From assembly GCA_016200345.1 (NCBI GenBank), contig JACQEX010000005.1, positions 7,968 to 71,967 of the forward strand: a stretch of DNA of 64,000 nucleotides. The letters run 5' to 3'. Below the pieces are notes generated by a model. It did not search any database, had not been told where the DNA came from, and saw nothing but the letters and a program-made list of their open reading frames with translations. Source of the stretch: Nitrospinota bacterium. Its GTDB lineage: Bacteria > Nitrospinota_A > UBA7883 > JACRGQ01. Of this stretch, positions 6,894 through 55,982 are shown piece after piece. The position numbers were made by a program, and so were the translations under genes. Each line of letters starts with the position of its first letter. Within the stretch, counting starts at the first letter, position 1.

Positions 6894-6912
6894 TCTCGCA
6901 TAAGGGGGAGTT

Positions 6913-13885: not shown

Positions 13886-13894
13886 CTCGTTCCT

Positions 13895-17809: not shown

Positions 17810-17854
17810 CCTTTTTTGCCATTCTTAGACCGAATAAATTTTTAAATTGTTCGC

Positions 17855-17883
17855 TTGCTCCCGGCGTGGATGTACTTTAGAAT
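17855..17883 (+). promoter_or_regulatory. Sigma70 promoter of tRNA-Lys
   Basis: TTGCTC-17 nt-TAGAAT. Confidence 0.6.
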
Positions 17884-17908
17884 AGCCCCCTTGTTCGCAA
17901 AGTAGCGT

Positions 17909-17984
<76 letters not shown>

Positions 17985-18112
17985 TTTTTTCAAAAGGCCG
18001 CGACATTTAGACCGTCCGCATATTTTCTGCCGCATGCACCTCGAAAGCAAATTGTGTAAAGCTCCATGTGGTGCGATACGATGATTCAAATCGCAACGCT
18101 TTGGAGGGATAA

Positions 18113-18370
18113 ATGTTATTTGTTCATTTTCTGATTGACACGCCGGTGGTGGCGTTTCTATTGCTCTTAGTTCTGCTCGTCACCGTCGTGCCTTTTGCCA
18201 TTGGTTGGTTTTCACGCCGGAAGGCCGCGAGGCTTGGTGTTGCGGATGTGCCGCCTAAAAATCCTCCGAGCACGCGATTTCTCGGAATCCAACTCGACAT
18301 TGCCATCCTGATTTTTGGGTTGTTGTTTCTTTTCGGTTTGGCCGGATGGGTAAAAAAGACGTTCTTTTAA
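18113..18370 (+). CDS. Small two-TM membrane protein
   Basis: GGAGG RBS; two hydrophobic helices; 85 aa. Confidence 0.6.
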   Translation: MLFVHFLIDTPVVAFLLLLVLLVTVVPFAIGWFSRRKAARLGVADVPPKNPPSTRFLGIQLDIAILIFGLLFLFGLAGWVKKTFF

Positions 18371-18386
18371 CAACGCCCCGCACTCT

Positions 18387-18554
18387 TTAAGATTCCAATC
18401 GGTAGGTACGGGCTTTAGCCTGTACTCTTCCTTGTTTCCCGGCGATTTCTTCCGCCTCCCGCTTGTCAAGAGTGAGCAACAGATAAGATTCCGCGGCCGG
18501 GTAATCCTTCTCCTCCGGCTCCGGCAACCATTTTATATCGTATTTATTCCCCAT
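18387..18554 (-). pseudogene. N-terminal fragment of a conserved hypothetical (ParB/Srx-like) protein
   Basis: MGNKYDIKWLPEPEEKDYPAAESYL resembles the N-terminus of a longer conserved family (recalled, not searched); the reading frame runs into a REP hairpin and stops. Confidence 0.5.
18402..18425 (+). repeat. Solo GTAG-type REP
   Basis: GTAG-GTACGGGC-TTTA-GCCTGTAC. Confidence 0.75.
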
Positions 18555-18663
18555 TTCTTCCTCCACATGTTGGCTGTCACGCGCCGATTCCACCATTTTC
18601 GGCCCAGGCCAGGAGTTTAATAAATCACGCTTGCGCGCAACAATAAAATAATGTGAGTGCTAA

Positions 18664-18692
18664 TTGAGTCGGGGGCTACTATGTGGTATGCT
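18664..18692 (+). promoter_or_regulatory. Sigma70 promoter (extended -10) of the large lipoprotein gene
   Basis: TTGAGT-17 nt-TATGCT with a TG extension. Confidence 0.55.
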
Positions 18693-18777
18693 TAGGCCAG
18701 CGCGTTATTTAACAGAACAGGCGTTGAGGGGTTTTCTTAACGGCCTTGCGAAAGGGTCTTCAGCATAGGAGGTTTTC

Positions 18778-21537
18778 ATGGGCGCTCTAAAAAATTTCAA
18801 ATTGTTCACTATAGTCTTGTTTTTCGCCGCGACTTCGTTTTTTCTAGTGGCGTGCAGCGGTGGCGGTGGTAGTTCCTCAACGGCAAGTAGCGGCCCGGTT
18901 GTCGGCGCGGTCGGCGTGACCGGGCTAACGATGGCCAGTAAAGTCAGCGCCGCCAGCGCCGGCACGGGCGGATCGCTAAAGCCGGACGTGATAGGGCTAA
19001 AGATTATGGACACGAAAGCCAATCTTAACGGGTGGGCCTCCACGGTGGACTACTACAAGGATACCACCAGCGTCTACACCCGTGAGAGGACGGACGAGGC
19101 CCTCCAGACCCCCAACATGATTCTTTGCATGATGAAGCAGGCGGCTTACGACACGATGGTCAACAGAGGGGATAAAAACGGATATTACATCGCGCAGGTC
19201 GATCAAAACCTCTGCTCCACGTCGCAGGATAGCGCGTCGAACGCCGGCAGTAGCAACCAGTCGTCCGGCTCGGCCGCGCCGAATTATTGGTTTTGGACGG
19301 TTCAATCCACCAGGGCGGACAGCAATCCCGGAACCCCTCAATACGTAAGAATATGGTTCCAGATGGACAAGGGCGGCGGCGGGAGCAATCAAAAGACCCA
19401 CGCCCTGATGCTGGTGGAAATTCTAATCACGTCCGGTTACACCACAACCAATCCGTACGGACTTTTCAATATGAACTTTGCCGCTTACCCGGCGGACGCC
19501 ACCGGTGTAATAACCTCCCAAACGCCGGTGATGAAGGGCATCCTTAGGGCGGTCAACGATCCCAACAACGCAGGTAAAGTTCTTTTGGAGTATTGGATGG
19601 CGGAGACGGGGGGAGGCCAGACCAACACTCAAGGGGCGACCGTCTCTAGGTCTTCGGACGGAGCGACCGGCGGAGGCGAGGTCACTTATACCGACTATAC
19701 TTGGGACAACACCAGTGGGCAGTCCACCGCCTCGCCAAAACGGGCCCGCTTTGCGTTCAGCACCGGCTCCGGCGCTTTCATAAGGCAAGGCCTCGATACC
19801 ACGTTGCCTTACAGCTCCTCCGGCGCCGCCATTTGTGAGGACACCGCTAACTTTAAGTATTCCGTCTGGAGCTACGGCATGTACGACGTCAACGGCGCAA
19901 GGGTAAACTTGATGTCGGGCTTCCCGATTAAGTATACCGACAGCAGAGATCATTACGGCTACGTCGGCAACTGGGGTATGAACTTCATGGACGACGTCAC
20001 GGTGGCCGACGGCGCCACAGTTTACAAGCAGGTCTGGTCGAATGGCGCGCCCTCTTCAACCCCCTACACGCTGAAAAAGAGCGGCGGTAAGCTGACTAAA
20101 TACACGCAGAGCGGGTCGTCCTTGAACCAACTTGACGGAGTGGGGTTGAGTTACGGCACCTCAAGCGGCGGTAGTTTTTCCAACTACAACCTGCATTGGA
20201 GCACCGCCTCCGGCGCGTTTGTGCTAGACTCCCTGTGGAATCAAAGCACCAACCAGATGACCCCGTTGACCGGCGCTTTGGACGTCTCCGCGTTGAAGTG
20301 GAACAATAACCTTCAAATGTTTTCCCAGTCTCTTGGCGGGCAGGTAATCATCATGCTACCGGCCTCCGGGGGATACTTCACAAGTTCCACGGCCAGCGGC
20401 ACTTTGGTGCCGGGGACAGGGACGACGTTTGGAGCAGGTACCGGTTCCGGCTGTTTGCTTACCCCCGCAGGATCCGGGAACAATTGGACAAATACTTGGA
20501 ATTGCTCATACGCGGTTTTAGATCCGGCGAAAATTGGGGTAATTTTCTACTCACGGCAGAATATATTCTCCGGCGATAGCGCGATATCCGGCACAGGGAT
20601 TACACTGACCTGTTATACCAACTGTCCGGACGCCACGGCGGTCGCCGCCAATGCGGGGGTGGCGTTCCTCCCGGCCTACGACGGCACCGGGAACCCGGTC
20701 CCCTACACCTACACGTTCAACAAGAGCGCCTACACCCTGAAGGACGGCACTGGCACGTCACTGGTCATGACCTCCAGCGGAAGCGGTTTGTCGGCAGGTA
20801 ATTACGGCGGCGGGGGGACCTTTAGTTGGGGTCTCCAAACTGGGGCGCTTTTCGACCCCACTGCGACGTTGACTACCGCCACGGGACAAACGATTACCTA
20901 CCTGCAAGCCCTGGCGTGTCCTTGGAATTCGGCCATGACCTGCGCTTGGAACGCCAGTAGCATTCTACCGGTTTATTATATTTGGGAGACCGGCTCGAAT
21001 CCTTGGAACACGCTTACCACGCTCCTTGACAGTTCAAACACGCCGTTGAAATTCGACGGCCAGGCGGACGTGGCCTACACGTATGGCAACGGCGCCGGAG
21101 CGTCGGGTAATTCTCTGGCTACCGACAACAAGTACAGCGGTAAAACTTTCCACCTGCAATACGGCGGTTTCGGTCAGTTGTGGGGCATCCCCGGTGTGTG
21201 CGTTAACGCGGACACCGGCGCGACGGACATAACGTGTAATATGAACGACAGGTATGTTCCGGAGTGGATAATACCGGCCGGTTCAAGCGCGAAGTATTCC
21301 TACACCAGTTCCGGCGGCACTTTGATATCCGGGACCGGCTACATCAAGGCGCTGGACGAGGAGAAACAGATGTTGTCAAAGACCTGTCCGGCTTACTCCC
21401 TGACTGCGTATACCATTCTGACGTCGGACGACTGGGTTGTTCCGGCCAACAGCCAGACCTTGCCGACCGTCATCAACCCGGCCCCGGCGGTCATAGCCGG
21501 AACGGTTCAATTGGCGGCGGGTACCGCGGCACATTAG
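18778..21537 (+). CDS. 919-aa S/T/G-rich surface lipoprotein of unknown function
   Basis: GGAGG RBS; lipobox FFLVAC followed by a SGGGGSSS tether; own promoter and terminator. Confidence 0.8.
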   Translation: MGALKNFKLFTIVLFFAATSFFLVACSGGGGSSSTASSGPVVGAVGVTGLTMASKVSAASAGTGGSLKPDVIGLKIMDTKANLNGWASTVDYYKDTTSVYTRERTDEALQTPNMILCMMKQAAYDTMVNRGDKNGYYIAQVDQNLCSTSQDSASNAGSSNQSSGSAAPNYWFWTVQSTRADSNPGTPQYVRIWFQMDKGGGGSNQKTHALMLVEILITSGYTTTNPYGLFNMNFAAYPADATGVITSQTPVMKGILRAVNDPNNAGKVLLEYWMAETGGGQTNTQGATVSRSSDGATGGGEVTYTDYTWDNTSGQSTASPKRARFAFSTGSGAFIRQGLDTTLPYSSSGAAICEDTANFKYSVWSYGMYDVNGARVNLMSGFPIKYTDSRDHYGYVGNWGMNFMDDVTVADGATVYKQVWSNGAPSSTPYTLKKSGGKLTKYTQSGSSLNQLDGVGLSYGTSSGGSFSNYNLHWSTASGAFVLDSLWNQSTNQMTPLTGALDVSALKWNNNLQMFSQSLGGQVIIMLPASGGYFTSSTASGTLVPGTGTTFGAGTGSGCLLTPAGSGNNWTNTWNCSYAVLDPAKIGVIFYSRQNIFSGDSAISGTGITLTCYTNCPDATAVAANAGVAFLPAYDGTGNPVPYTYTFNKSAYTLKDGTGTSLVMTSSGSGLSAGNYGGGGTFSWGLQTGALFDPTATLTTATGQTITYLQALACPWNSAMTCAWNASSILPVYYIWETGSNPWNTLTTLLDSSNTPLKFDGQADVAYTYGNGAGASGNSLATDNKYSGKTFHLQYGGFGQLWGIPGVCVNADTGATDITCNMNDRYVPEWIIPAGSSAKYSYTSSGGTLISGTGYIKALDEEKQMLSKTCPAYSLTAYTILTSDDWVVPANSQTLPTVINPAPAVIAGTVQLAAGTAAH

Positions 21538-29760: not shown

Positions 29761-30954
29761 TTAAACCGCAACGCGCTTTCTGAGTTGTGTTGAAGGCTTA
29801 TAACGAGAATGGGTATTTGCACTCAATAGGCCGAACAATTCGGCACCGATAGCGTGAGCCAACCGTACTGGGACGGCGTTTCCGATTTGTCTCATTGCCT
29901 CCCCCCAAGTACCTGAAATTACATAATCATCAGGGAAGGTTTGAATTCTTTTGGCCTCCAAAACCGTAAAATATCTTATTTTGTCGTTCCTGAATCGAAT
30001 CATATTTTCCCCGCCCGGGACTCCATGCCCTCCGGCTTTTATAGTTTTTGAAGGCTGGTCATAATCACTACCGCTATGGCCGGAATATGACCTCGCACCG
30101 TCTCGGTAAATATGGTCTTGAATGCCATGGTCGGAATTAGGGCTTGGAAGGTTGGAAATGGCATCTCTGACCGTAAGCCAAGCACTTCCCGTTGGAGGAA
30201 ACATTCCAAATTTATTTATCAGTTCTTCTTTCAACATCTTTAACTCTGTTGTTGTTGCGTCCCACTCCGATTTTTTAACTTTATGCCTTTCCCAATATTC
30301 ATTCGTCGAATATTTCTCCCACTGCAACCTCTCCCGGCTATGGGTCGGTTTTGGAAATTTCCAGCTTAGGTTTAAATCGTCTCGTAATCCGACGATAACG
30401 ACGCGCTCCCTTGTTTGAGGCACGCCATAATCGGCTACATTAAGGAGCGCATAGCTTACATTGTATTCCGCATTTCCGCCGTCCAAACTCTGGTCGTGTC
30501 GGAGCGAGGTTAGATGCTTTGTCCACGAAACAAAGCTCGTGGCCTCATGGGAAGGTTGCCTTAGCCGCCTAATAATGTATTCAAAATAATCGGCAAACGA
30601 CTCCCTTAACAACCCCTTTACATTCTCAAAGATAAAGGCCTTTGGGGACAAAGTTTCAATTGCTTTAATCGCGTAAGGGAACATATCTCTGTTGTCATCT
30701 TTTCCAAGATGTTTTCCCCCCAATGAAAAGGGTTGGCATGGGGGGCCTCCGGCGATAAGGTCAACGGATGAGAAGTTGTTAAAATCCACGTTGCGAACGT
30801 CCGCCTCTTGGACAATTTCCGACGAGTAATTTTTCCTTAATGAAAGGCAGGCATCTTTATTAAATTCGACAAACGCCTTGTGTTGAAACCCGGCCGCCTC
30901 CAGTCCGCAGGCCAAACCTCCTGCCCCGGAGAACAATTCCAGCGAAGTGAACAT
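29761..30954 (-). CDS. C5-cytosine DNA methyltransferase, M.Eco29kI-like
   Basis: ELFSGAGG, GGPPCQPFS, ENVKG, YGVPQTRER, QIGNAVP; AT-rich. Confidence 0.93.
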   Translation of the reverse strand: MFTSLELFSGAGGLACGLEAAGFQHKAFVEFNKDACLSLRKNYSSEIVQEADVRNVDFNNFSSVDLIAGGPPCQPFSLGGKHLGKDDNRDMFPYAIKAIETLSPKAFIFENVKGLLRESFADYFEYIIRRLRQPSHEATSFVSWTKHLTSLRHDQSLDGGNAEYNVSYALLNVADYGVPQTRERVVIVGLRDDLNLSWKFPKPTHSRERLQWEKYSTNEYWERHKVKKSEWDATTTELKMLKEELINKFGMFPPTGSAWLTVRDAISNLPSPNSDHGIQDHIYRDGARSYSGHSGSDYDQPSKTIKAGGHGVPGGENMIRFRNDKIRYFTVLEAKRIQTFPDDYVISGTWGEAMRQIGNAVPVRLAHAIGAELFGLLSANTHSRYKPSTQLRKRVAV

Positions 30955-31582
30955 CAGGCGCTGCCTAAGGCGGTCATATGGGAGGCAATTTTGTCAATTA
31001 TTGATTTTTTGGCGTTATGTTTGCCTAAACATTTTTTCGCCCAGTATGGATTACGTTCCAATCTGGTTTAGCCCCGTCGTATCGCCCTTTACCCGGGTCG
31101 TGGTTTCCAAATCCGTCTAATACGGAGTTCCACAACGGTTTGTGTATTTTTATCAGGGCGGCCTCTATCGTGCCGATCATATCCGAGCCTTCGCTTTCAA
31201 AAATTACAAACCGGCACATGAAATCTTTGGAGGAGAGGTCAACAAGGTCAACGCTCCTTTTGTGTTGTGCGAGTCTTCCACAAAGCTCATTTGAGCGGTT
31301 TTCAGCTTTATCGTGCGTCCTTGATTGTCTCCATCCGCGAGGCACGGCCTTTCCCACATAAATCGGGAAATTGTATGAGAGGCGGTTTAGGAGAAAATAT
31401 TTTTCGTAAAGAGGACGTTTCCCAATGTAATAAAGGGCGTAAATGCCGCTTCCGGTAAATTTTTCCGCGGGAGGCAGATGGTGAACCGGCGTGCCGTTGA
31501 AAAACCTTACCGCGTCTTTGATTAGCTCGACTAATCCGTCGTTACGGTAAACATGTTTATTGCGGTCAAACCCCTGCTTCAT
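30954..31582 (-). pseudogene. Eco29kI-family GIY-YIG restriction endonuclease, frameshifted near the C-terminus
   Basis: GIYALYY...IYVGKAV, R-x3-H, IEAALI, LWN...DGFGNH. The ORF stops at 31025, but the -1 frame continues KCLGKH... to a TGA overlapping the MTase ATG. Confidence 0.8.
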
Positions 31583-32195: not shown

Positions 32196-33244
32196 AAAAA
32201 GTATTGGATTACATTGCGGGAATAAAACCCGTGGACGTCTCGATGGACGTGGCGGCGCTCGACCATATAAACAGCCTTACGAAGCCGCCCGGCTCGCTTG
32301 GCAGGATGGAGGAGTTCGCCCTCAATTTTATCCGCGCCTCAAACTGCATTCCCCCCAAGCTGGATAAAAAAACCATTTTTATAATGGCGGGGGATCACGG
32401 CGTGGCGCAGGAGGGGGTAAGCGCGTTTCCGGCGGAGGTTACGCCGCAAATGGTGTTTAACTTTCTCTCGGGAGGCGCCGCGATAAACGTCCTTGCCCGG
32501 CACGCTGGGATTAAAACCGTGGTGGTGGACATGGGCGTCAACGCCGACCTTTCCGGCAGGCCGGGGCTGACAGACAAAAAAATCGGCATGGGAACAAAGA
32601 ACATCGCAAAACAACCGGCGATGACGAACGACGAGGCGGAGCGCGCCATTTTTGCCGGCATTGAACTGGCCGAGACCGCCGCCAAAGAGGGTTGCCACAT
32701 CATCGGCACCGGCGACATGGGGATTGCAAACACGACCCCCTCCACCGCGCTTTACTGCGCCCTGCTGGGCCTTTCGCCCGAGGAAATCTCAGGCCCCGGA
32801 ACGGGTCTGGACGAAAAGGGCGTTCGGCACAAGGCCGAGGTCGTCAAAAAGGCGGTTGCGCTTCACGCCCCATACGCCTCGCCTCTGGACGCGCTGGCAA
32901 AGCTTGGCGGGTTTGAAATAGCCGGTCTTACCGGCCTTATCCTTGGCGCGGCGAAAAATAACATACCCGTCGTCGTGGACGGCTTCATTTCGTCGGCCGC
33001 CGCGATGGTGGCGGTAAAATGCGCCCCGGCGGTGATGCAAAGGACGTTTTGGTCCCATATGTCAAACGAACGGGGGCACAAAAAAGTTTGCGAGACGATG
33101 GGCGTGCTCCCGATTTTGGATTTAAACCTTCGCCTTGGAGAGGGAACCGGGGCCGCGCTCGCCATTTGGATTATCGAGGGCTCCGTAAAGATTTACAACG
33201 AAATGGCCACTTTTAAAAACGCGGGGGTTTCCACGGCCGTTTAG
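32192..33244 (+). CDS. cobT: Nicotinate-nucleotide-dimethylbenzimidazole phosphoribosyltransferase
   Basis: TTG 32192 (TTGA overlap); LTKPPGSLGRME, AGDHGV, GDMGIANTT, LRLGEGTGA. Confidence 0.95.
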   Translation: MKKVLDYIAGIKPVDVSMDVAALDHINSLTKPPGSLGRMEEFALNFIRASNCIPPKLDKKTIFIMAGDHGVAQEGVSAFPAEVTPQMVFNFLSGGAAINVLARHAGIKTVVVDMGVNADLSGRPGLTDKKIGMGTKNIAKQPAMTNDEAERAIFAGIELAETAAKEGCHIIGTGDMGIANTTPSTALYCALLGLSPEEISGPGTGLDEKGVRHKAEVVKKAVALHAPYASPLDALAKLGGFEIAGLTGLILGAAKNNIPVVVDGFISSAAAMVAVKCAPAVMQRTFWSHMSNERGHKKVCETMGVLPILDLNLRLGEGTGAALAIWIIEGSVKIYNEMATFKNAGVSTAV

Positions 33245-33271
33245 AAACCGTGCTTTTTGCTTGAGGTTTGA

Positions 33272-34000
33272 TTGCTTAGAACCATTCGCCTTGCATTCGT
33301 ATTCCTTACGCGCCTCCCGCTTCCGGGGAGGGCGGACTACCAAGAGGGGGATTTTCCGAAGAGCTTCCTCTATTTTCCGCTTGTGGGGCTTTCGCTCGGG
33401 CTTTTTTTAGCCGGACTGGCGTGGGCGTTCATCTGGGTGGGGGTGGACGACAGGGTTTCGGCGTTTATTCTAATATTTACGATTGTGATGGTCACGGGCG
33501 GGCTTCATTTGGACGGCCTGGCCGACATGGTGGACGGATTTTTCTGCGGCAAGGGAACGGACGACATGCTGAGGATAATGCGCGAACCCTCGGCAGGTCC
33601 CTTCGGCATGACGGCCATTTTTCTAGTCCTCATAGGAAAATTCGCCGCTTTGTGGCACATACTGGAGTTTGGAAACATCGCAAACATTATTCCGGTGTTT
33701 GCCATGTCGCGGTGGGGGATGGCGTTCGCCTCCTTCGAGGCGGTTTACCCAAGGCCAGCTGGGGCGGGAAAGGCCTTCATCGGAAAGGTCTCGCCGCTGA
33801 CGCTGATTTACTCGCTCGTCTTCGCGTTGTTGGTCACTTTTTACTTTGCTAGAAAACAGTTGGTGGTATTTTTTGTGGTGACATTTTTCATCACCTACGC
33901 CGTCCGCCACATCTCGGACGCCAAAATTGGCGGCGTCACCGGGGACGTGCTTGGCGCCATAAACGAGGTTTTAGAGACCACGTTGTTGCTGGCTATTTAA
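33272..34000 (+). CDS. cobS: Adenosylcobinamide-GDP ribazoletransferase
   Basis: FLTRLP, TGGLHLDGLADMVDG, GGVTGDVLGA. Confidence 0.95.
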   Translation: MLRTIRLAFVFLTRLPLPGRADYQEGDFPKSFLYFPLVGLSLGLFLAGLAWAFIWVGVDDRVSAFILIFTIVMVTGGLHLDGLADMVDGFFCGKGTDDMLRIMREPSAGPFGMTAIFLVLIGKFAALWHILEFGNIANIIPVFAMSRWGMAFASFEAVYPRPAGAGKAFIGKVSPLTLIYSLVFALLVTFYFARKQLVVFFVVTFFITYAVRHISDAKIGGVTGDVLGAINEVLETTLLLAI

Positions 34001-34082
34001 GGCCCCAAAACCTTCTTCCGGGGCGAAAACTTGACCTAAGGTTAAATTTTGGTTAATATCCGCTCATGTTCATGGATATATT

Positions 34083-35009
34083 GTGACGGCAAAAGACGCG
34101 GCCACCGGAATGATTTTGGTGGTTGACGACTCGCTTACGGCGCGAATGATGCTGAAGGAGTACCTCAAGCCGATGGATCTTCCGTTGGTTATGGCGCAGG
34201 ACGGCCAGGAGGCGTGGGAGATGCTTTCCCGCTGGCCGGACAGATATTCCGCCGTTCTTTTGGACAGGGAGATGCCAAGGATGGACGGCATGCAGGTTCT
34301 AAACAAGATAAAGGCAGACAAGAATTTAAGGCACATTCCCGTCGTCATGCAGACCTCGTTGAGCCAGAAGAAGGACGTTTCCGATGGAATCAAGGCGGGC
34401 GCGTATTACTACCTCACAAAACCCTACTCCCCGCAGGACGCGATTGGCATAACCAGGGCCGCCGTGGCGAGTTTTGAAAAACACAAATCCATGTCGTCCG
34501 TCGCCCATGAAAGCGGGACGTCGCTCTACCGCGGGGATGAGCGCGAGTTTTATTTTTGCCACCCGTCGGAGGCGGAGGCCATTTCGAGGGTCTTGGCAAA
34601 AAAATGTCCCGAGCCGGAAAAAACCGCCATCGGCCTGTGGGAGCTGATGATAAACGCGATTGAGCATGGAAATCTTGGAATCACCTACGAGGAAAAATCG
34701 GATTTGATTGAAAACGGAAAATTGGAGTCCGAGGTCAGGGCGCGGCTTTCCGACCCCGCGTACTCCGCAAAAAAGGCGTTGGTTACCTTTGAAAGCTCCG
34801 AGGACTCGCTCCGCTTCCGAATCCGGGACGACGGGCCGGGATTCGAGTGGAAGCAGTTTCTAACGCTAAGCCCCGAGAGGGCGTTTGACTCGCACGGCAG
34901 GGGCATAGCCCTTTCCAAAGAAAAGTTTTTCGACCATTTGGAGTATTTTGGCTCAGGCAACGAGGTGCTGGCCTCCGTCAGTCTTAAAGCCGGCCGTCGC
35001 CCCTCGTAG
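34083..35009 (+). CDS. Response regulator with anti-sigma-type HATPase_c_2 output domain
   Basis: REC (VVDD, LLDREMP, YLTKP) plus ELMINAIEHGN...IRDDGPGF...HGRGI; no HisKA. Confidence 0.85.
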   Translation: MTAKDAATGMILVVDDSLTARMMLKEYLKPMDLPLVMAQDGQEAWEMLSRWPDRYSAVLLDREMPRMDGMQVLNKIKADKNLRHIPVVMQTSLSQKKDVSDGIKAGAYYYLTKPYSPQDAIGITRAAVASFEKHKSMSSVAHESGTSLYRGDEREFYFCHPSEAEAISRVLAKKCPEPEKTAIGLWELMINAIEHGNLGITYEEKSDLIENGKLESEVRARLSDPAYSAKKALVTFESSEDSLRFRIRDDGPGFEWKQFLTLSPERAFDSHGRGIALSKEKFFDHLEYFGSGNEVLASVSLKAGRRPS

Positions 35010-35129
35010 TTCTTTCTTCTCATATAAATTACGACGTCTTTCGCGCCCCATTTGACCCCTTTTTTGCCCCCTTATTCACAACGCTTTGAGAGGATGTCAA
35101 AGAGGGATAGAATACTCTCGGTGGTATGA

Positions 35130-37238
35130 ATGGATTACAGTAGCGAAAGCGAAATTTTTGACAACTTCCTTGCGGAGTCCGCCGAAATTTTGGGCGAACT
35201 CGAGCAGGGGGTCATCACGCTCGAAAGAACCCCGTCCGACCGCGAGCCGGTGGACAACATCTTCCGTTGCGTGCACTCGCTAAAGGGGAACAGCTCCCTT
35301 TTTGGAATCTCCGGCATCAAGATGCTTTCCCATTCCCTTGAAAACCTGATGAGCCGCATACGCGACCGCCAGATAGACGTAGACGGCGCAATCATAGGGC
35401 TTGTTCTAAGGGGTGTTGACCACCTAAAGGAGATGTTTTCCGCCCTCATGGCGGAGCGTAAGGAGACGCCCATAACCCAGGGGCAGGAGGAATTTCTCAC
35501 CGAGATCGAGGCCGTCCTGCAATCCAACGGAACCTCCAACCACGAGGAGATGCTAAGGTCGGACGTGATGAAATTTTTGTCCCGCGAGGAAGTGAAGGAG
35601 GAGCTTAAGATAAACCCCATCCTCAACGAGTTTTTGCAGATGATTATGAAAAATTCGCCAAAGCTAATCGCCGACAGACGGCAGAAGACCGGGAACGACC
35701 GTTTGTGTTACGCCGGGGTGAACGTTTCGAGGGAGTATTACGCGATCATGGTGGTGCTTGCGGAGGTCGCGGACGGCAAGCCGGACAGCACCCACTATCC
35801 CACGGTTTCCGCAAGCTTGGACGCGCTGGTCGCCAAACATACCGAGGCGAAGCACGACAAGCCGCTGGTGGTTCTAAAGGGGCTTAGGGACGACCTGGAG
35901 ATGATGTACCAGGACGAATCCGGCTTCGACGACGTGCTGGCCGGAATAACGAAGGACGCAATGGCCGCCTATGCCGCCATGCTGGACAAGGAGAAACAGG
36001 AGGCGCAGGCGGACAAGTCGGCCGACGGGCCGCGACAGCAAAAAATGATCAAGATTGACCAGGGAAAACTTGACCGCACCATAGACCTTTCGAGCGAGAT
36101 TGTGATTGTGTCGGAGTTTATGAACTATCTTCAATCCCAGTTTTCCGAGGGGAACGTGGATGCGAACATCAACAGCCTGAAGGACGCCACGGTTGCGCTT
36201 CAGGAGCACAGCGAGGCTCTTTCGAGGCACCTGTACGACATCAGAAAGGTCCCGATATCCGAGGCGTTTCAAAGCCTTCCGCGCGTGGTGCGCGACACAT
36301 GCGTGACCGTCGGCAAAATGGCAGGATTGGTTATTAGCGGCGAGTGGACGATGGTGGACAAAAGCGCCGTGCCGAAGCTCGAGACGATGCTTGTCCACAT
36401 AATTCGCAACAGCATTGACCACGGGCTGGAGACGCCGGAGAACCGCCACTCGGCCGGAAAACCGGAGGAGGGGGTCGTCACGCTTTCGGCGGCGCAACAG
36501 GGGGAGATGCTGGCGATAACCGTGTCGGACGACGGAAGGGGCATCGACGTCGAGAAGTTAAAACTGGCGCTCGTGGAAAAGGGGCTTGCGACCGCGCAGG
36601 CCGTTGCGGGAATGACCGACCAGCAGGCGGTGGACCATGTTTTTCTTCCCGGCTTTTCGATATCCAAAAAGGTTACGGAGACGTCCGGGCGCGGCGTGGG
36701 AATGGACGTCGTGCTCTCCTCCGCGCAGGAGATGGGGGGCCATGTGAGGCTTGAGAACCGGCCCGGGGTCGGGTTGAAGACCGTGATAACGATTCCTTTG
36801 GCGCACACGACGCTAATTAAAAAGGGGCTTGCGGTCGCGGTCGGGCACTCTGTTTTTCTCATCCCGAACGAGGAGGTAATGGAGTCGTTCCGCCCGTCGT
36901 CGGAGGAAATTTTCACGGTGCGCGGTAAAAAAGAGGTCGTAAAGCGGCGCGAGGAGATTATTCCGCTGGTGAGGCTTTACGACCTTTTCGGCATTAACGG
37001 CAACGTTAAAGACCCCAAAGAGGGTATACTTGTGCTCGTTCAAAACAAAAAGAACCGGGCCTGTTTTCTAGTGGACAACGTGATAGGCCAGCGGCAGATT
37101 ATTTACAAGGACTTGTCGGTGAAGACCACGACGGAGCCCTCCCCGTTCGAGGGGATTTCAATTTACGACGGCAACAAACTTGCCATGATACTGGATATGG
37201 ACGGCATAATTATGCAGTCGCAAATGGAGGAATGGTAG
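35130..37238 (+). CDS. cheA: Chemotaxis-type histidine kinase CheA
   Basis: Hpt FRCVHSLKG; dimerization IKIDQGKLD; HIIRNSIDHG, SDDGRG, FLPGFS, SGRGVGMD; C-terminal CheW domain. Confidence 0.93.
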   Translation: MDYSSESEIFDNFLAESAEILGELEQGVITLERTPSDREPVDNIFRCVHSLKGNSSLFGISGIKMLSHSLENLMSRIRDRQIDVDGAIIGLVLRGVDHLKEMFSALMAERKETPITQGQEEFLTEIEAVLQSNGTSNHEEMLRSDVMKFLSREEVKEELKINPILNEFLQMIMKNSPKLIADRRQKTGNDRLCYAGVNVSREYYAIMVVLAEVADGKPDSTHYPTVSASLDALVAKHTEAKHDKPLVVLKGLRDDLEMMYQDESGFDDVLAGITKDAMAAYAAMLDKEKQEAQADKSADGPRQQKMIKIDQGKLDRTIDLSSEIVIVSEFMNYLQSQFSEGNVDANINSLKDATVALQEHSEALSRHLYDIRKVPISEAFQSLPRVVRDTCVTVGKMAGLVISGEWTMVDKSAVPKLETMLVHIIRNSIDHGLETPENRHSAGKPEEGVVTLSAAQQGEMLAITVSDDGRGIDVEKLKLALVEKGLATAQAVAGMTDQQAVDHVFLPGFSISKKVTETSGRGVGMDVVLSSAQEMGGHVRLENRPGVGLKTVITIPLAHTTLIKKGLAVAVGHSVFLIPNEEVMESFRPSSEEIFTVRGKKEVVKRREEIIPLVRLYDLFGINGNVKDPKEGILVLVQNKKNRACFLVDNVIGQRQIIYKDLSVKTTTEPSPFEGISIYDGNKLAMILDMDGIIMQSQMEEW

Positions 37239-37241
37239 AAG

Positions 37242-38183
37242 GTGGCGGATCTTAAAAGAATTTTTCTTCTTCCCGGCGAGCTGGCCGTCTCGCGCCAGCC
37301 GGCGGAGCTTGCGACCCTGCTGGGGTCGTGCGTCGCCATCTGCCTTTTTAACACCCAGATTAAAGCCGGCGGCATGAACCATTATATGCTCCCCAGCGGC
37401 ACGAACGAGGACATGAAGGGGAAGTACGGCGACTATTCCACAAGAAAACTTATGGAGATGATGCAGAGGCTCGACCCAAACCCCAGAAACCTCGTGGCGC
37501 AGGTCTATGGCGGCGGGGCCGTGGTGGGGCACCTTAACACCGGCGTCGGCATAGGCGAGAAAAATATAGAAATCGCCCTTAGGATGTTGGCGGATTTCGG
37601 GGTGACCGTCACCAAAAAGGACGTGGGCGGCACAAACGGAAGAAAGATTTTCTTCAACACCGAAACGGGCGTAATAGCGATGCGTCCCATTGAAAAATCG
37701 GAGTTGTCCAAGGAGTTGGAGCACAAGAAAAAAACAATCGCGTCCAGAAAAATCAGGGTCATGGTGGTGGACGATTCGGCAACGATACGCCAAATCATCA
37801 TAAAGGCGATATCCTCGGATCCCGAAATAGAGGTGATAGGCCAGGCGGGAGACGCATACGAGGCGCGCTCCAGCATACTGGAGTTGGATCCGGACGTTTT
37901 GACGCTGGACATCATCATGCCCAAAATGGACGGGGTGACCTTCCTAAAAAAGCTGATGATGCACTTCCCCAAGCCGGTGATAGTGGTGAGCTCCATAGCC
38001 CAAAAGGACAGCAAGCAAAGGCAGAGGGCGCAGATGATTGGCGCGGTGGACGTGATAGACAAGGAGGATTTGAAGATGTACCAGGGCCTTGCCACCGCCA
38101 CCTCCATCCTCACGAACAAAATAAAAATCGCCGCCGTCACCGTGGTAAAAAAGAAGACCGAAGAGGAGATAGGGCACATCTGA
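37242..38183 (+). CDS. cheD: CheD deamidase fused to a CheB-type receiver domain
   Basis: LPGE...LLGSCV, GGMNHYMLP, DVGGTNGRKI; then VMVVDDSA...TLDIIMPKMDG...VVSS...DK; no methylesterase domain. Confidence 0.88.
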   Translation: MADLKRIFLLPGELAVSRQPAELATLLGSCVAICLFNTQIKAGGMNHYMLPSGTNEDMKGKYGDYSTRKLMEMMQRLDPNPRNLVAQVYGGGAVVGHLNTGVGIGEKNIEIALRMLADFGVTVTKKDVGGTNGRKIFFNTETGVIAMRPIEKSELSKELEHKKKTIASRKIRVMVVDDSATIRQIIIKAISSDPEIEVIGQAGDAYEARSSILELDPDVLTLDIIMPKMDGVTFLKKLMMHFPKPVIVVSSIAQKDSKQRQRAQMIGAVDVIDKEDLKMYQGLATATSILTNKIKIAAVTVVKKKTEEEIGHI

Positions 38184-38295
38184 CCCGCATGCGGAGCCGA
38201 ACCCGCACCGTCTTGGGTGCGAGGGGAGCCTGGCCTGCGTCGGTTTAAAAGCGACAGTTAGAGCATTTTAATTTATTTTAGACACGCATCTTTAA

Positions 38296-38378
38296 TGTCA
38301 TGCCGGGCTTGACCCGGCATCCAGCTCCTTAAGTTAGGTATTTTGAGGAAATGGATTCCCGCTTTCGCGGGAATGACA
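38296..38378. repeat. Palindromic intergenic element (dRS3/RPE-like)
   Basis: TGTCAT...ATGACA ends; ATGCCGGG-CTTGA-CCCGGCAT hairpin; ATTCCC-N8-GGGAAT at 38355-38374. Confidence 0.75.
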
Positions 38379-38409
38379 AATTATCGTATCAAAAGGAAGT
38401 TAAACCGCC

Positions 38410-39171
38410 CTAGCCGTAAATTTTACTTAGATATTCCAACGACTCCGCCATGTATCCGGGGGAAAAGATCTCTATAATCACCGCGCCGTCCATTTTCATT
38501 TCCGCAAAGCTGGCGATGATTTTCTTTAGCGTCGCCTGCGGTATGTTTGTCAGCGGGAGGTGGTCTCTGCCGCCCGCGACACCGTGGAGGTGCGCCATTC
38601 TTATCCTGTCGCCATATTTGTCAAAAAACTCCTCTGGATTTCCGCCCTCGAACAGCCAGTGCCCAACGTCGAAACATACCGAAACCCCAAGCCCCCTTAC
38701 GCTTTCCCAAGCCTCGGCAAACGGGGAGCCAATTATGTTTTCCACGCATATTCTTTCGGGGGACACCCCCGTTGCCTCCAATAGACTCGATATTCTTTCT
38801 GGAACGAGCGCGGGGTTCCATGCGTCGGACGACTTTTCAACATGAAGAACGTAGTTGCGAATTTGCGCCTTGTCGTACGCCAGCATGGTGTGAGACAAGA
38901 TTTTTTCCGGCGCCCCGCCCGGAAGCGCCATGGACGTCGGTATGGGAAGGTGCAGTGAATATCCAAATTCGGGGTCGTTTAACGAGCGCAGAGAACTCAA
39001 TTCCTCGTCGCTAATCGGGGATGTTACCGCGGGCTCGTACGCGGTCAACTGCACCTCTTTGAAAACCGGCTTTAATTTTGCCGCGTTCTCGGAGAACCCC
39101 GCCGGCCAGACGAACGAGGGGGCGCCAAGCCTGACGCCAAGGTTGGAGAACCGTCCGCGATACTTTTCCAT
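38410..39171 (-). CDS. AP-endonuclease-2/TIM-barrel metalloenzyme, probable cobamide remodelling phosphodiesterase CbiR-like
   Basis: RLGAPSFVWP, YSLHLP, YVLHV, ICVEN, CFDVGH, HLHG...DHLPL, IIEIF. Confidence 0.6.
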   Translation of the reverse strand: MEKYRGRFSNLGVRLGAPSFVWPAGFSENAAKLKPVFKEVQLTAYEPAVTSPISDEELSSLRSLNDPEFGYSLHLPIPTSMALPGGAPEKILSHTMLAYDKAQIRNYVLHVEKSSDAWNPALVPERISSLLEATGVSPERICVENIIGSPFAEAWESVRGLGVSVCFDVGHWLFEGGNPEEFFDKYGDRIRMAHLHGVAGGRDHLPLTNIPQATLKKIIASFAEMKMDGAVIIEIFSPGYMAESLEYLSKIYG

Positions 39172-39185
39172 CGGTTTTTAGCGGG

Positions 39186-39377
39186 CTATTTTAATATTTC
39201 TTCAATGCGCGGGGTGCATCGTTTGCCCTGGCACGAGCCGCTTCCGGCGCCAGTCGCCTTTTTTAGGCCGTGCACGGTATTTACGCCCTTCTCCACATGC
39301 TCAAGAAAAGCCTTCTTTTTTATTCCCTTGCAGAGGCACACCGATTTAAGTCCGTCAATTATCTTTTGTTGGTTCAT
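39186..39377 (-). CDS. BFD-like [2Fe-2S]-binding protein
   Basis: VCLCKGI...TGAGSGSCQGKRC. Confidence 0.8.
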   Translation of the reverse strand: MNQQKIIDGLKSVCLCKGIKKKAFLEHVEKGVNTVHGLKKATGAGSGSCQGKRCTPRIEEILK

Positions 39378-39495
39378 TCCCCCATTGTATCAAAATAATA
39401 CGGGATGGTTCACGCGAAGGCGCGAAAAAACAGGAATCTCCGCTTCGTGTCCCTTCGTGTTTTTCGTGGTTTGCTCCATTACTCTCTTTCGCAGT

Positions 39496-40377
39496 TTAAA
39501 TTTTTAGTTGGATTTGTTTGCCGGGGGAGCAGTAGCCGCCTACGTCCACGTTTGTAATTCTTCCCCCCTTTGTGGAGACCCATGTAAAAAGTTGCGAAAG
39601 ATGGCCGTAGCCCTGCAAAATTTCCAACTCCATTGTGCCGTCAGTGTCGGACAGGGCCCACCGACGGTTGATAAGGCAGGCCAGAGGCCCGCAACCGCTA
39701 CCTGTCGCCGGATCCTCCACCACCCCGAGCGCCGGGCAAAAGTTTCTGCAAAGCACCGTAGCGTCGTCAGCGAAAAATGGCATTACCGCGTCCATATGGT
39801 GCGTTTTTCGAACTTGGTCGTGAATTTTTGCGGAGATGCGCGCCTTTTTTAGCGCCGTTTTTGAGGAGAGCGGGATTATCAGATGCGGCAGGCCGGTGGA
39901 GACGACCTCGCCGTCCCCCGCGACGTCGCTTTCCCTCAACGACAAAAGCTTGGCGGACGTCTCTCGCCCGATCTTTTTCCCAAAACTCGGCACGCCTTGC
40001 GACATTGTTATTCTGCCGTCCGGAAGTCTTTTTAGGGGGATTTTCCTTTTCCCGATCTGTTGGACGTAGGCGCCCTTTTTGGCGACAAGCCCGCTTTTTT
40101 CCAGCACAAACAGGGTGCCCAAAGTCGGGTGGCCGGCGAAAGGGATTTCCTGCGCCGGGGTGAAAAATCGAACGATGTAGTCGGCCTTTGCTATTCCGGG
40201 CGGGAAGACAAAGGACGTCTCCGAAAACCCCAGTTTTTTCGCGATTTTTTGCATCTGCGCGTCGGAGAGTCCTGCGGCGTCGGTGACGACCCCCAGTTGG
40301 TTGCCGTGTCTGCCGTTTTTTGTAAAAACCCTGGCTGTCTCCACAACAACCGTTTTTCGGGGCCTGCAATTATTCAT
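39496..40377 (-). CDS. PhzF-family isomerase/epimerase
   Basis: GNQLGVV, SETSFV, RFFTP..EIPFAGHPTLG, EDPATGS. Confidence 0.92.
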   Translation of the reverse strand: MNNCRPRKTVVVETARVFTKNGRHGNQLGVVTDAAGLSDAQMQKIAKKLGFSETSFVFPPGIAKADYIVRFFTPAQEIPFAGHPTLGTLFVLEKSGLVAKKGAYVQQIGKRKIPLKRLPDGRITMSQGVPSFGKKIGRETSAKLLSLRESDVAGDGEVVSTGLPHLIIPLSSKTALKKARISAKIHDQVRKTHHMDAVMPFFADDATVLCRNFCPALGVVEDPATGSGCGPLACLINRRWALSDTDGTMELEILQGYGHLSQLFTWVSTKGGRITNVDVGGYCSPGKQIQLKI

Positions 40378-40413
40378 TCGTTTTTCCAGTGGTTTAGGTA
40401 ATATAATGGTCGA

Positions 40414-40779
40414 ATGCTAAGGGCATTCTACCATAACTTGGGAGTCGGCGTTTTTTGCGCCGTGGTTTTTTCCATTTTGTCCATGTCCGCCCCCTTGTCC
40501 GCTTTTGGCGAGGACGCGGCCACGGCATCTGAAGAAAAAGAGGTAACCATAACGGGAAGCATTGAAAAGGCCGCAATAGACGAAAAGGGCGCGGTGATAG
40601 CCGTTGAGATATGGGTCGAACAGGGGGACGCATACGATTATTTTCTTGTCAACGACTCGCCAAAAGGGAACGAGCTTTTGGGCCACGTGGGTAGCAGGAC
40701 GACCCTCTCCGGAATTTTGGAAGAGGACGAGGACGGCAACAAGATAGTCACCGTAAAATCATTTGCAATCGTGAAATGA
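40414..40779 (+). CDS. Exported acidic OB-fold-like hypothetical protein
   Basis: Signal-like N-terminus; V-T-I-T-G...V-T-L-S-G strands. Confidence 0.6.
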   Translation: MLRAFYHNLGVGVFCAVVFSILSMSAPLSAFGEDAATASEEKEVTITGSIEKAAIDEKGAVIAVEIWVEQGDAYDYFLVNDSPKGNELLGHVGSRTTLSGILEEDEDGNKIVTVKSFAIVK

Positions 40780-40841
40780 GGACTACGTCCGCGACTTCTT
40801 CGTTTTTTTTCGCCCCGGCATTTGACTAAATTAGTGTTCCC

Positions 40842-41753
40842 ATGAGCCAAAACTCCGAACAACTTGAAAAAAGGGTTTTTGTTGTCGAGGACGAGTTCAC
40901 AAAAAAATCGGGCCTTAGCGCCCTTCTTGCCGAAGTGGGGTTCGACGTGCGCTCGGCGCCGCACGGGGCCGACGTTCTGGCGGAGATAATTTCCGCCAAG
41001 CCGACCATAATAATAACCGACTTGGAAAAACAATCTTCGGACGACCCGTTTGTTCTAGTGGAAAAAATAATCGGCTCGCCCGAATTGAAGGGTTCGGAGG
41101 TGTTCGTTTACACAGAAAGCATAGACGTGGCGCTGGAGGTTCAACTTCGACGCTTAAAGCTTTCCGCATACTTTATTAAGGGGGAGACGTCCAAGTTTCT
41201 CGTCGAGGGGGTAAAAAATTTTTTCGTGAAGGAAGACCCGACGGACCTGGCCCCACCTCCGCCGGGGGAAAGCGAGAATTTTGACTCGGAGAATCCGGGG
41301 CCTCCGAACGCCGGCGAAAAAGGCGGCCCGGGCTTCGACGAATTTTCCGTAAAGGTCAACAAGGGCGTGGGGGACAACGACGGCGAGACGCTGTTTAACC
41401 TCGGCGTAAGCTATATGGAAATGGGATTGTTGCCCGAGGCCGAGCACGAGTTCTCGCTGGCCGCCAACGACCCCAAATTAAGGCTGGACGCGCTCGTTTC
41501 AGGCGGAATATGCCTTAGAAAAATGGGGAAGTTTAAGGAGGCCGCGGACAGGTTTAAGCTTGGTATGGAGTCCGCGCCGGATCGGGACAGGGTTTTGGAA
41601 TTTCGATACGAAATAGGGGTGACGCTCGAGGAGGCGGGAATGCTAAAAGAGGCGTTCAGTTTTTTTGGGTCGGTTTACAAGGAGGATAAAACCTTTCGAG
41701 ACGTGGGGGAAAGACTCGTAAAAATTCAGGGCGAATTAAAAAACTTGGCCTGA
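40842..41753 (+). CDS. Degenerate receiver domain plus C-terminal TPR module
   Basis: VFVVEDE...IITDL; FNLGVSYMEMGL...RYEIG...FRDVGERL. Confidence 0.7.
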   Translation: MSQNSEQLEKRVFVVEDEFTKKSGLSALLAEVGFDVRSAPHGADVLAEIISAKPTIIITDLEKQSSDDPFVLVEKIIGSPELKGSEVFVYTESIDVALEVQLRRLKLSAYFIKGETSKFLVEGVKNFFVKEDPTDLAPPPPGESENFDSENPGPPNAGEKGGPGFDEFSVKVNKGVGDNDGETLFNLGVSYMEMGLLPEAEHEFSLAANDPKLRLDALVSGGICLRKMGKFKEAADRFKLGMESAPDRDRVLEFRYEIGVTLEEAGMLKEAFSFFGSVYKEDKTFRDVGERLVKIQGELKNLA

Positions 41754-44789: not shown

Positions 44790-45176
44790 TCAGACCTTGA
44801 GGACTTTTTTGAGTTTTTCCTCTAGGGTCGCCGCGTTGAACGGTTTTACGATGTAGTCGTTCACGCCGGCCTGCGCCGCCGCAACGACGTTGTCCTTCAG
44901 CGCCTCGGCGGTGACCATTATCACCGGAACGGATTTCATCGCGTCGTCGGAGCGCATCGCCTTTAGCAGTTCGAGGCCGGTCATGTTCGGCATGTTCCAG
45001 TCGAGCAGAACGATGTCGTATTTTGTGGCCTTCAGTTTTGGGAGCGCGGTGGAGCCGTCGTCCGCCTCGTCAACGTCCTTGATGCCAAGCTGACCAAGAA
45101 TATTTTTTTCAATTTTGCGCATGGTGGCGAAATCGTCCACCACGAGCACCTTCATATTTACGTCAAGATCGCCCAT
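44790..45176 (-). CDS. cheY: Chemotaxis response regulator CheY
   Basis: [34 protein letters not shown]. Confidence 0.93.
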
Positions 45177-54093: not shown

Positions 54094-55071
54094 CTATATT
54101 TTTTGACCTTTTTTTAACCTAGTTTTAATTAATTTTCGGTAATTGGCCTTAGGTTCGTGGACGGATGGAAAGCCGTCCATCCAGGATAAATCCCTTCCTA
54201 TGACCAACTCCTCCATCGCGGCGTGGTGGGTGTTGTTCATCGGAATTAGACGCATTTGGAAGCCATGTTTTCTTGCTAGAATTTTCACTTCGTCGGCGTT
54301 GTCGTATGTCATTAGAAAGTCGCCCTTAACCTCTTCGCAAATTGAAAACAGCCGCTCGTGGTCAATCATGGAATGATTGTATAGTCTCTTGCCGGCCTTT
54401 TTCCCCCCGGCTGTGTATGGGGGATCAATAAAAAAAATAACATCGTCCCTTTTGGCAAATTCTTGCATCACTTTCAAACCGTCCTCGCGCCTAAAATCTA
54501 TTTTTTTTGAAAAGTCCCCGATGTTCAAAAGCCTGTTTGCTATCGTCCGTGGGTACCAACGCGAAGTGATGCCTTTGCCATTTTCGCCGTGTTTCAAAAT
54601 GCCGGAACCGGGAGCCAGTATCCCTCCGTGGAAGGTTCTGTTTTTTAAAATCGTATGAAACGCGATTTCCTTATTGGATTTAGTTGGCTTGCTGAGTTCC
54701 TTCAAAAGCGATTCTTTGGTCAGATTAAAAGTTAAAATCTTATCGGCCAGCCATTTTGCGTGTCCTTCGACAATCAATTTCCAAACTGCCGCCACCTCAT
54801 TGTCCAATTCGACCATAACCGCTTTTTGAGCTAAATTCTCAGATAATGCGGTAAGGCTGATTATTCCGCCCCCGGCAAACGGCTCCACTAGGAATTTTGG
54901 CTTTTGGTGGAGAGATGAGCACCACCCCCTGAATGTTGGCACAAACCATGTCTTTCCTCCGGGATACCTAAAAGGGCTTAGTTTGGCCACGGACGACACA
55001 TTTACCGGCTTTATTGTCCGGCTCCCACGCAATATATCTGGAAATAATGCAATTTGTTTATGTGGAGGCAT
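54094..55071 (-). CDS. Amino-DNA methyltransferase (Dam/D12-like)
   Basis: SPFRYPGGK, EPFAGGG, IDPPY; AT-rich. Confidence 0.9.
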   Translation of the reverse strand: MPPHKQIALFPDILRGSRTIKPVNVSSVAKLSPFRYPGGKTWFVPTFRGWCSSLHQKPKFLVEPFAGGGIISLTALSENLAQKAVMVELDNEVAAVWKLIVEGHAKWLADKILTFNLTKESLLKELSKPTKSNKEIAFHTILKNRTFHGGILAPGSGILKHGENGKGITSRWYPRTIANRLLNIGDFSKKIDFRREDGLKVMQEFAKRDDVIFFIDPPYTAGGKKAGKRLYNHSMIDHERLFSICEEVKGDFLMTYDNADEVKILARKHGFQMRLIPMNNTHHAAMEELVIGRDLSWMDGFPSVHEPKANYRKLIKTRLKKGQKI

Positions 55072-55074
55072 AAC

Positions 55075-55959: not shown

Positions 55960-55982
55960 GTTCGGCCACTTAAAGCAAACAT

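Follow-up and report, generated by a model that had tools for sequence, protein, structure and literature searches.

To our knowledge, no chemotaxis adaptation enzyme is less well understood than CheD, and we know of only one way in which it is controlled, namely sequestration by CheC, which is enhanced by phosphorylated CheY (CheY-P). In the CheC/CheD/CheY-P systems of Bacillus subtilis and Thermotoga maritima (2F9Z), the output of the kinase feeds back on the availability of CheD, and in CheB a phosphorylated receiver domain (REC) controls a receptor-modifying catalytic domain. The locus described here lies in a stretch of 64,000 nucleotides, referred to as the window, from a Nitrospinota bacterium (GCA_016200345.1, contig JACQEX010000005.1, forward-strand positions 7,968 to 71,967), and encodes CheD-REC, a CheD domain fused to a CheB-type receiver, immediately downstream of a gene for the histidine kinase CheA. 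The locus comprises three same-strand genes, for a REC+HATPase_c_2 regulator, CheA and CheD-REC; their open reading frame (ORF) coordinates (Table 1) match exactly those in an earlier reading of the same DNA, hereafter the original prediction.

CheD-REC shares with the CheC/CheD/CheY-P systems the CheD fold, the catalytic triad and feedback of kinase output on CheD. However, neither CheC nor CheX is found in the window, CheC is missing from all of ~63 comparable loci, and control would be exerted in cis via the fused receiver. Salmonella CheB (1A2O) likewise has a CheB-type receiver and linker (43% identity) and CheA as its presumed kinase, and follows a similar logic, but the catalytic domain of the window protein is a CheD (Cys-His-Thr) rather than a Ser-His-Asp esterase, it is N-terminal, which reverses the domain order, and there is no CheR nearby. 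A further comparison is with uncharacterised CheD-REC-CheB_methylesterase fusions of ~520 aa, which have the same domain order, are collinear with the window protein over ~300 residues and often have cheA upstream (as at the locus labelled L088), whereas the window protein stops at the CheB linker, belongs to a separate clade and has no CheW or CheR genes nearby. In contrast to the canonical CheA+CheW+MCP cluster, no gene for CheW or for a methyl-accepting chemotaxis protein (MCP) lies beside this CheA.

The CheD-receiver fusion and its relatives

In an alignment, T25, C30 and H47 of CheD-REC occupy the positions of the Thr, Cys and His in the T. maritima CheD structure, three residues that Chao et al. 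are said to have described in 2006 as its catalytic triad. Among 116 aligned homologs, T25 and H47 are invariant and C30 is near-invariant (each at least 90% conserved), and in the receiver D177/D178, D223, S250 and K274 show little or no variation. Judged by its sequence, the CheD domain is catalytically intact and is a predicted deamidase. The best NCBIfam match of the receiver is CheB (NF001965, E 8e-38), over model positions 2-139 of 357, which comprise the receiver and linker. CheB_methylest (PF01339) was not found in CheD-REC by Pfam, and the chain ends 38 residues past the receiver. A model made with AlphaFold2 (AF2) from the 116-homolog alignment has a predicted local distance difference test score (pLDDT) of 94. 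Foldseek matches the CheD half to T. maritima CheD (2F9Z_C, template modelling score (TM) 0.86, root-mean-square deviation 1.8) and the receiver half to CheB receivers (3T8Y, TM 0.90; 1A2O, 43% identity). Pfam, NCBIfam and conservation among the homologs agree on this point with the original prediction, which described a CheD with intact Cys and His fused to a CheB-type receiver that retains its phospho-Asp and lacks an esterase.

An artefact, in which a mis-assembly deleted the cheB esterase domain (a possibility that the original prediction had itself named) or a pseudogene was frameshifted, is already refuted. Four independently assembled groundwater-metagenome runs show no joints or indels across 33900-38375, and the identical three-gene arrangement occurs on separate contigs with identical or near-identical ORFs. 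The best sequence clusters, at least 120 in number (53-100% identity, ~312 aa), are all CheD+REC and none has an esterase, while homologs in the hundreds share both the length and the conserved C-terminus of CheD-REC. The CheD+REC architecture search that had been proposed also extends beyond these clusters: a scan in which each GTDB species was represented by a single genome yields ~63 fused CheD-REC loci in ~63 species-level genomes of six or more phyla. The hosts belong to the Nitrospinota, Nitrospirota, Omnitrophota, Thermodesulfobacteriota (Desulfarculia, Adiutricales), Bdellovibrionota, Planctomycetota and Lentisphaeria; several genomes have two copies, and complete genomes with the cheA/cheD-REC pair include CP026657.1 and OY759590.1. 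CheD-REC is also found in the complete genome OY762711.1 and in the high-quality Nitrospinota metagenome assemblies JACRGR01, JBFOMS01 and CBDCXE01. Public databases name these proteins generically, as 'response regulator', 'CheD' or 'CheB', and no description of CheD-receiver or CheD-CheB fusions was found in the literature searched. Literature matches to 'cheBD' were considered as CheD-CheB fusions and rejected, since the term is shorthand for gene order.

All parts of the module belong to known families; what is new here is that CheD-REC is the sister clade of a larger CheD-REC-CheB-esterase family. The top 150 matches of an exhaustive profile search over 1.84 billion representative proteins were sized, and include 39 short forms (280-370 aa) and 78 forms of 481-600 aa, whose first ~300 residues cover the whole CheD-REC profile. 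By Pfam, the longer forms consist of CheD, REC and CheB_methylest (59 of 97 full-length representatives), and the order REC-CheB_methylest-CheD also occurs. A neighbour-joining, midpoint-rooted tree built on the region common to both groups places 34 short forms in a single clade, whose sister holds 59 forms with an esterase; another four short sequences fall among the latter, as possible fragments or possible separate losses of the domain. When compared with sampled stand-alone CheDs and CheB receivers, the CheD domains and the receivers of the short family each form a monophyletic group. The four full-fusion contexts all contain che genes, namely CheA and CheW (L088), CheR (L089), CheR, CheW and CheB (L091) and Hpt-CheW and CheW (L092), and these contexts tie the CheD-REC lineage to receptor modification. 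Other odd fusions of adaptation enzymes also came to light: P0432, P0487 and P0488 include a REC-CheB_methylest-CheD protein (593 aa), and single chains of ~935-1065 aa unite CheR, CheB_methylest and two stretches of receiver.

Because of its position as sister to the CheD-REC-CheB_methylest family, the window protein appears to be an esterase-less relative or derivative of CheD-CheB fusions, a kinship that had not been foreseen. The most economical account is that cheD and cheB, genes that are frequently neighbours, became fused, and that one lineage later lost the esterase. That lineage would have kept the receiver, the linker, the conserved tail and CheA, and would no longer have had CheR and CheW beside it. 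This direction of change is inferred rather than proven, as the tree is midpoint-rooted and neighbour-joining.

The loss of the esterase and of the CheR and CheW neighbours is also consistent with a phosphate sink or decaying remnant, in which a degenerate CheD-CheB would do no more than draw phosphoryl groups away from CheA, its CheD domain having no regulated function; receiver-only sinks are known in multi-CheY systems. Such decay is very improbable in view of the strong conservation of CheD across phyla, with T25 and H47 invariant and C30 nearly so, the retention of a full-length ORF in more than 120 clusters and the confident AF2 model.

The cheA partner and its helical insert

Only 3 nt separate cheA from cheD-REC, and a GGAGGA motif lies 8 nt before the GTG start of cheD-REC, inside the end of cheA; the two genes are predicted to be translationally coupled here. 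ORFs were called in all loci of the scan and labelled with domain probes built on the window proteins and on seeds verified by Pfam. Neighbours were counted in the 10 kb around the ~63 CheD-REC loci, and cheA adjacency was counted in the ~53 loci with at least 2.3 kb of upstream sequence. In 37 of these ~53, cheA is immediately upstream of cheD-REC, and 34 of the 37 partner CheAs keep P5. The conserved unit is the two-gene arrangement of cheA followed by cheD-REC.

The window CheA belongs to a distinct clade, with full-length identities of 36-100% inside it and of ~30% to generic CheAs; H49, N427, DDGxG (467-471) and GRGVG (520-524) are invariant in the clade alignment. Residues ~107-304 have no Pfam match, and no P2/CheY-binding domain was found there. 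The original prediction had remarked on an unrecognised region at this place, which is confirmed, although its length is ~200 aa and not 170. It had also pointed out the absence of a typical P2, but more than 50% of CheAs have no detectable P2 (PMC10542144). The absence of P2 in this CheA is ordinary, apart from the clade specificity of the insert that occupies its place.

Folded alone, the insert is modelled by AF2 as eight helices in two helical bundles (pLDDT 78.5). Its best Foldseek matches are CheA P1 domains (1TQG and 3KYJ, TM 0.60-0.67, at a weak E of ~0.2), and a sequence-profile search found nothing significant in the PDB. Because the model is helical and has only Hpt-like matches, the insert is predicted not to be an α/β P2; tentatively, it may consist of two degenerate Hpt-like domains, such as other CheAs have. 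CheAs that lack P2 and carry additional or degenerate Hpt domains (Berry, Andrianova and Zhulin; PMC10542144) have the same helical Hpt-like bundles between P1 and P3. In contrast to these, the window insert has no Hpt signature detectable in its sequence, and its conservation is confined to the Nitrospinota/Nitrospirota clade of CheAs paired with CheD-REC (16 loci). As a matter of speculation, the insert could serve as a docking site for CheD-REC.

Around the pair, the Nitrospinota loci typically have housekeeping genes, namely leuB/leuC-, rho- and CCA-adding-enzyme-like genes, as read from their translations, and hisAFIE, as detected by Pfam. At L086 the order is hisAFIE, cheA, cheD-REC and a REC-TPR gene (13115-14302), and at L006 a 395-aa REC gene is directly 3' of the pair. 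REC-TPR recurs near the pair in L086, L006 and the window, and is tentatively a candidate for a further phospho-acceptor. In other lineages, cheA is preceded by extra receivers, Hpt-REC or REC-histidine-kinase genes. In the Nitrospinota, small ORFs ahead of cheA were considered as CheW or STAS and discarded as spurious, being of low complexity and unconserved.

A proposed phospho-gated CheD and its alternatives

The reading preferred here, with a probability of roughly 55%, is that CheA phosphorylates the receiver of CheD-REC and so gates the action of CheD on receptors encoded elsewhere. CheA, which the original prediction had already placed at the head of a loop gating CheD, is very likely the kinase of the CheD-linked receiver, because the pair is conserved (37 of ~53 loci) and coupled, the receiver is of the CheB type and its phospho-site is intact. 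CheA would autophosphorylate on H49, and the phosphoryl group would pass to D223 of the receiver, by analogy with transfer from CheA to CheB. Phosphorylation may then alter the packing of the receiver on the CheD domain, or its constraint of that domain, and CheD would be switched in its binding to, or its deamidation or de-esterification of, Gln/Glu sites on helical chemoreceptor-type targets, which would be chemoreceptors encoded elsewhere in the genome. Since CheC is absent, phosphorylation of the receiver would be a natural replacement for control by CheC and CheY-P, with the fused receiver standing in for both and linking kinase activity back to receptor state by a short path. The Hpt-like insert of CheA may dock a partner where P2 would be, and the REC-HATPase_c_2 protein would be at most a second phospho-acceptor with an output of the Ser/Thr-kinase type. 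Architecture, residue conservation, gene pairing, phylogenetic placement and the lack of MCP, CheW, CheR and CheC neighbours are observed, whereas the transfer of phosphoryl groups, the gating of CheD and the nature of its target are inferred.

Several observations weigh against this reading. The inter-domain geometry of the AF2 model of CheD-REC is uncertain (predicted TM-score (pTM) 0.69). An MCP signalling domain, the presumed target, occurs within 10 kb of one of the ~63 CheD-REC loci and is missing from the other 62, and CheW is nearby in five. In the Omnitrophota (L029, L030, L032), the partner CheA has 521-538 aa and no P5; at L030 it comes after a second, full-length CheA in a complete che cluster (MCP, CheW, CheR, CheB). 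Some CheD-REC proteins have no adjacent CheA or are found with other kinases. In the Sedimentisphaerales (L060, 3904-9450, and L061), the gene immediately upstream encodes a 1848-aa CheB_methylest-CheR-PAS-HisKA-HATPase-REC hybrid rather than CheA, and a normal cheB follows; at L026, a second copy of CheD-REC follows a histidine kinase (HK) fusion, HK-REC-REC-HATPase_c_2. Deamidation, moreover, is irreversible, and true feedback would need a role for CheD binding or for an esterase activity of CheD. For B. subtilis CheD, one published account (PMC3513319) indicates that binding matters more than catalysis.

The main rival is that the pair is a receptor-independent module without MCP or CheW, in which CheA is regulated via its insert or other inputs and the target of CheD is not a receptor but possibly the CheA insert or some other helical protein. 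It draws on the near absence of MCP, CheW, CheR (nearby in seven of the ~63 loci, as is the CheB esterase) and CheC (none of the ~63 within 10 kb). The few control loci, with a stand-alone cheD beside cheB, bear the full MCP/CheW/CheR/CheB/CheC set, from which it follows that the domain probes work. The P5-less CheA partners in the Omnitrophota, the non-CheA kinase partners in the Planctomycetota and the restriction of the conserved CheA insert to the clade with a CheD-REC partner point in the same direction. Against such a module stand the P5 of nearly all partner CheAs (34 of 37), the CheW/CheR contexts in which the sister CheD-CheB family is embedded, the common scattering of MCP genes in genomes, the presence of FlgM in the window and the chemotaxis genes reported for the Nitrospinae. 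No candidate substrate motif was found, either: inspection of the CheA insert by eye revealed no receptor-like methylation motifs, a motif that is low in information. A receptor-independent module is thus doubtful, and slightly more so in the particular form in which a phospho-gated CheD senses or modifies the Hpt-like-insert CheA directly or deamidates some other non-MCP protein.

For the preferred reading, in which CheA gates CheD action on receptors, the location of those receptors matters. Essentially all ORFs of the window were scanned with Pfam, and there was no match to MCPsignal, CheR, CheB_methylest or CheC/CheX, nor to stand-alone CheW or flagellar structural genes, which bears out the earlier statement that no cheW, cheR, cheB, cheC or MCP gene is adjacent. 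The step from there to a 'minimal' system is not upheld, since adjacency alone is insufficient: the window contains a FlgM-like ORF, which hints at a flagellar regulon in the Nitrospinota host, and flagellar and chemotaxis genes have been reported in the Nitrospinae core genome (PMC5029188). These two observations, together with the CheW/CheR contexts of the sister family, make receptors elsewhere plausible, and the genes for MCPs and CheW are probably located in other parts of the genome.

The upstream regulator, the wider window and significance

The protein encoded upstream of cheA joins a receiver to an RsbW/SpoIIAB-like ATPase, as originally described and as the Response_reg and HATPase_c_2 Pfam matches confirm. 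As read from the sequence, the receiver keeps DD15-16, D61, T91 and K113, and the ATP-binding motifs are ELMINAIEHGN (N-box), DDGPGF (G1) and GRGIAL (G2). The receiver is CheY-like, with CheY structures as its top PDB matches. Homologs are 288-300 aa long, and the true start is therefore probably the ATG at 34110.

Shewanella Che3-CrsR, Pseudomonas aeruginosa HsbR and Vibrio fischeri SypE are chemosensory or regulator pathways that signal to partner switches or transcription, and there, too, a CheA-family kinase is found beside a response regulator with an RsbW-type HATPase_c_2. The original prediction saw the three genes as one pathway, with the REC-HATPase_c_2 protein as an RsbW-like anti-sigma kinase and with partner-switching control of transcription, not the motor, as its output. 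In keeping with this, the gene is on the same strand as cheA at a gap of 120 nt, its product has a CheY-like receiver and intact ATP-binding motifs, response-regulator-controlled switches are known (SypE, HsbR, CrsR), and the CheD-REC behind HK-REC-REC-HATPase_c_2 at L026 is an independent association of both modules. However, the described systems have PP2C domains and STAS partners, whereas the Pfam scan of essentially all ORFs of the window gave no match to STAS, PP2C or sigma factor genes, and none of the four homolog contexts of REC-HATPase_c_2 has a STAS, a PP2C or a target sigma factor.

The adjacency is also not conserved. The REC+HATPase_c_2 architecture is very widespread (at least 120 clusters with identities from 42% upward), but among the ~63 loci it adjoins cheA in a single lineage, that of the window (the window and L001). 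Two homologs stand alone, the closest one (60% identity) is directly after fliD-fliS (L093, 2850-6080), and in the metagenome-assembled genome nzgw266, where cheA/cheD-REC is found on different contigs, an unlinked ortholog lies between aconitase and a radical-SAM gene. A sigma-70-like promoter match in the 120-nt gap ahead of cheA suggests that cheA/cheD-REC may be transcribed independently of the upstream gene. The REC-HATPase_c_2 protein is a lineage-specific neighbour and no conserved member of the module, and the genomic contexts hint that its response-regulator family is linked to flagellar gene regulation rather than to CheA. An output of the pathway to partner switching is unlikely.

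Table 1. Positions of the features discussed, numbered within the 64,000-nucleotide window
Feature	Position	Strand	Evidence
REC-HATPase_c_2 response regulator, 308 aa	34083-35009	+	Response_reg 11-119 (6e-22), HATPase_c_2 180-297 (7e-9, PF13581)
Sigma-70-like promoter match TTGAGA-16-TAGAAT, 10/12	35086-35113	+	consensus match only
CheA histidine kinase, 702 aa	35130-37238	+	Pfam; NCBIfam CheA 3e-93
CheA P1/Hpt with H49	35151-35447	+	Pfam Hpt, residues 8-106
Clade-specific helical insert of CheA, residues ~105-305	35442-36044	+	in the place of P2
CheA P3	36042-36221	+	Pfam H-kinase_dim, residues 305-364
CheA P4	36378-36803	+	Pfam HATPase_c, residues 417-558
CheA P5/CheW-like	36825-37211	+	Pfam CheW, residues 566-694
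CheD-REC, 313 aa	37242-38183	+	Pfam CheD, residues 49-148; Response_reg, residues 173-275
CheD deamidase domain (predicted)	37242-37736	+	Pfam PF03975, 2e-21
CheB-type receiver of CheD-REC	37758-38066	+	best NCBIfam match CheB
Conserved CheB-linker-like C-terminal tail of CheD-REC	38067-38180	+	
Two GC-rich hairpins, ATGCCGGG...CCCGGCAT and TTCCCGC...GCGGGAA	38296-38384	none	between convergent genes
REC-TPR protein	40842-41753	+	Pfam REC weak (1e-4) and TPR
CheY-like single-domain receiver	44790-45176	-	Pfam REC, 1e-31
FlgM-like anti-sigma-28 factor, 63 aa	50943-51134	+	PF04316, E 1.2e-6, 29 bits, cutoff 25

Upstream, the locus is flanked by the housekeeping genes cobU/cobT/cobS, and downstream by genes for a xylose-isomerase-like TIM-barrel protein (PF01261) and a PhzF-like protein and by hisA/hisF/hisIE. 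The cheY and flgM genes that had been placed elsewhere in the window are both found there (Table 1). The two hairpins 3' of cheD-REC have the sequences ATGCCGGGCTTGACCCGGCAT and TTCCCGCTTTCGCGGGAA. In the metagenome, words from these hairpins are 250-970x deep, compared with 12-30x for genes (20-30 times as deep as the genes on either side), and all four runs have contigs that break off at the hairpins; because of this depth and these breaks, they are identified as a high-copy repeat in the metagenome community, of the repetitive extragenic palindromic (REP) or miniature inverted-repeat transposable element (MITE) type. It is possible that they act as a terminator or REP-like element closing the unit. 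Rfam has no match across 33000-41000.

The window holds several further features. A 63-aa ORF (39186-39377, - strand) encodes a BFD-like [2Fe-2S] protein (PF04324, 1e-11). Two restriction-modification pairs, one with an Eco29kI-family endonuclease and a C5 DNA methylase and the other with a NotI-family endonuclease and a D12-class N6-adenine methylase, are found at 29761-31582 and 54094-56550, and the GC content falls in both regions. A 919-aa ORF (18778-21537, + strand) has no Pfam match even at E 0.1, and is preceded by ~1 kb without a confident gene (17809-18778). Finally, a tandem pair of small cyclic nucleoside monophosphate-binding proteins of ~150 aa each (6432-7371, + strand) is close to a REC-GerE regulator (7798-8451, - strand).

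With CheD wired in cis to a CheB-type receiver behind CheA, the module offers a simple test of a phospho-gated deamidase, and it is found in poorly studied phyla such as the Nitrospinota, Omnitrophota and Planctomycetota. If the target of CheD is not an MCP, the known scope of CheA-based signalling would widen; were the module receptor-independent, it would provide the first CheD with a substrate other than a chemoreceptor and a CheA that works without MCP/CheW arrays. The family also suggests a stepwise series, from separate cheD and cheB genes to a CheD-CheB fusion and then to loss of the esterase and of the CheR and CheW neighbours, which would illustrate how methylation-based adaptation can be dismantled while the link from kinase to modifier is retained.

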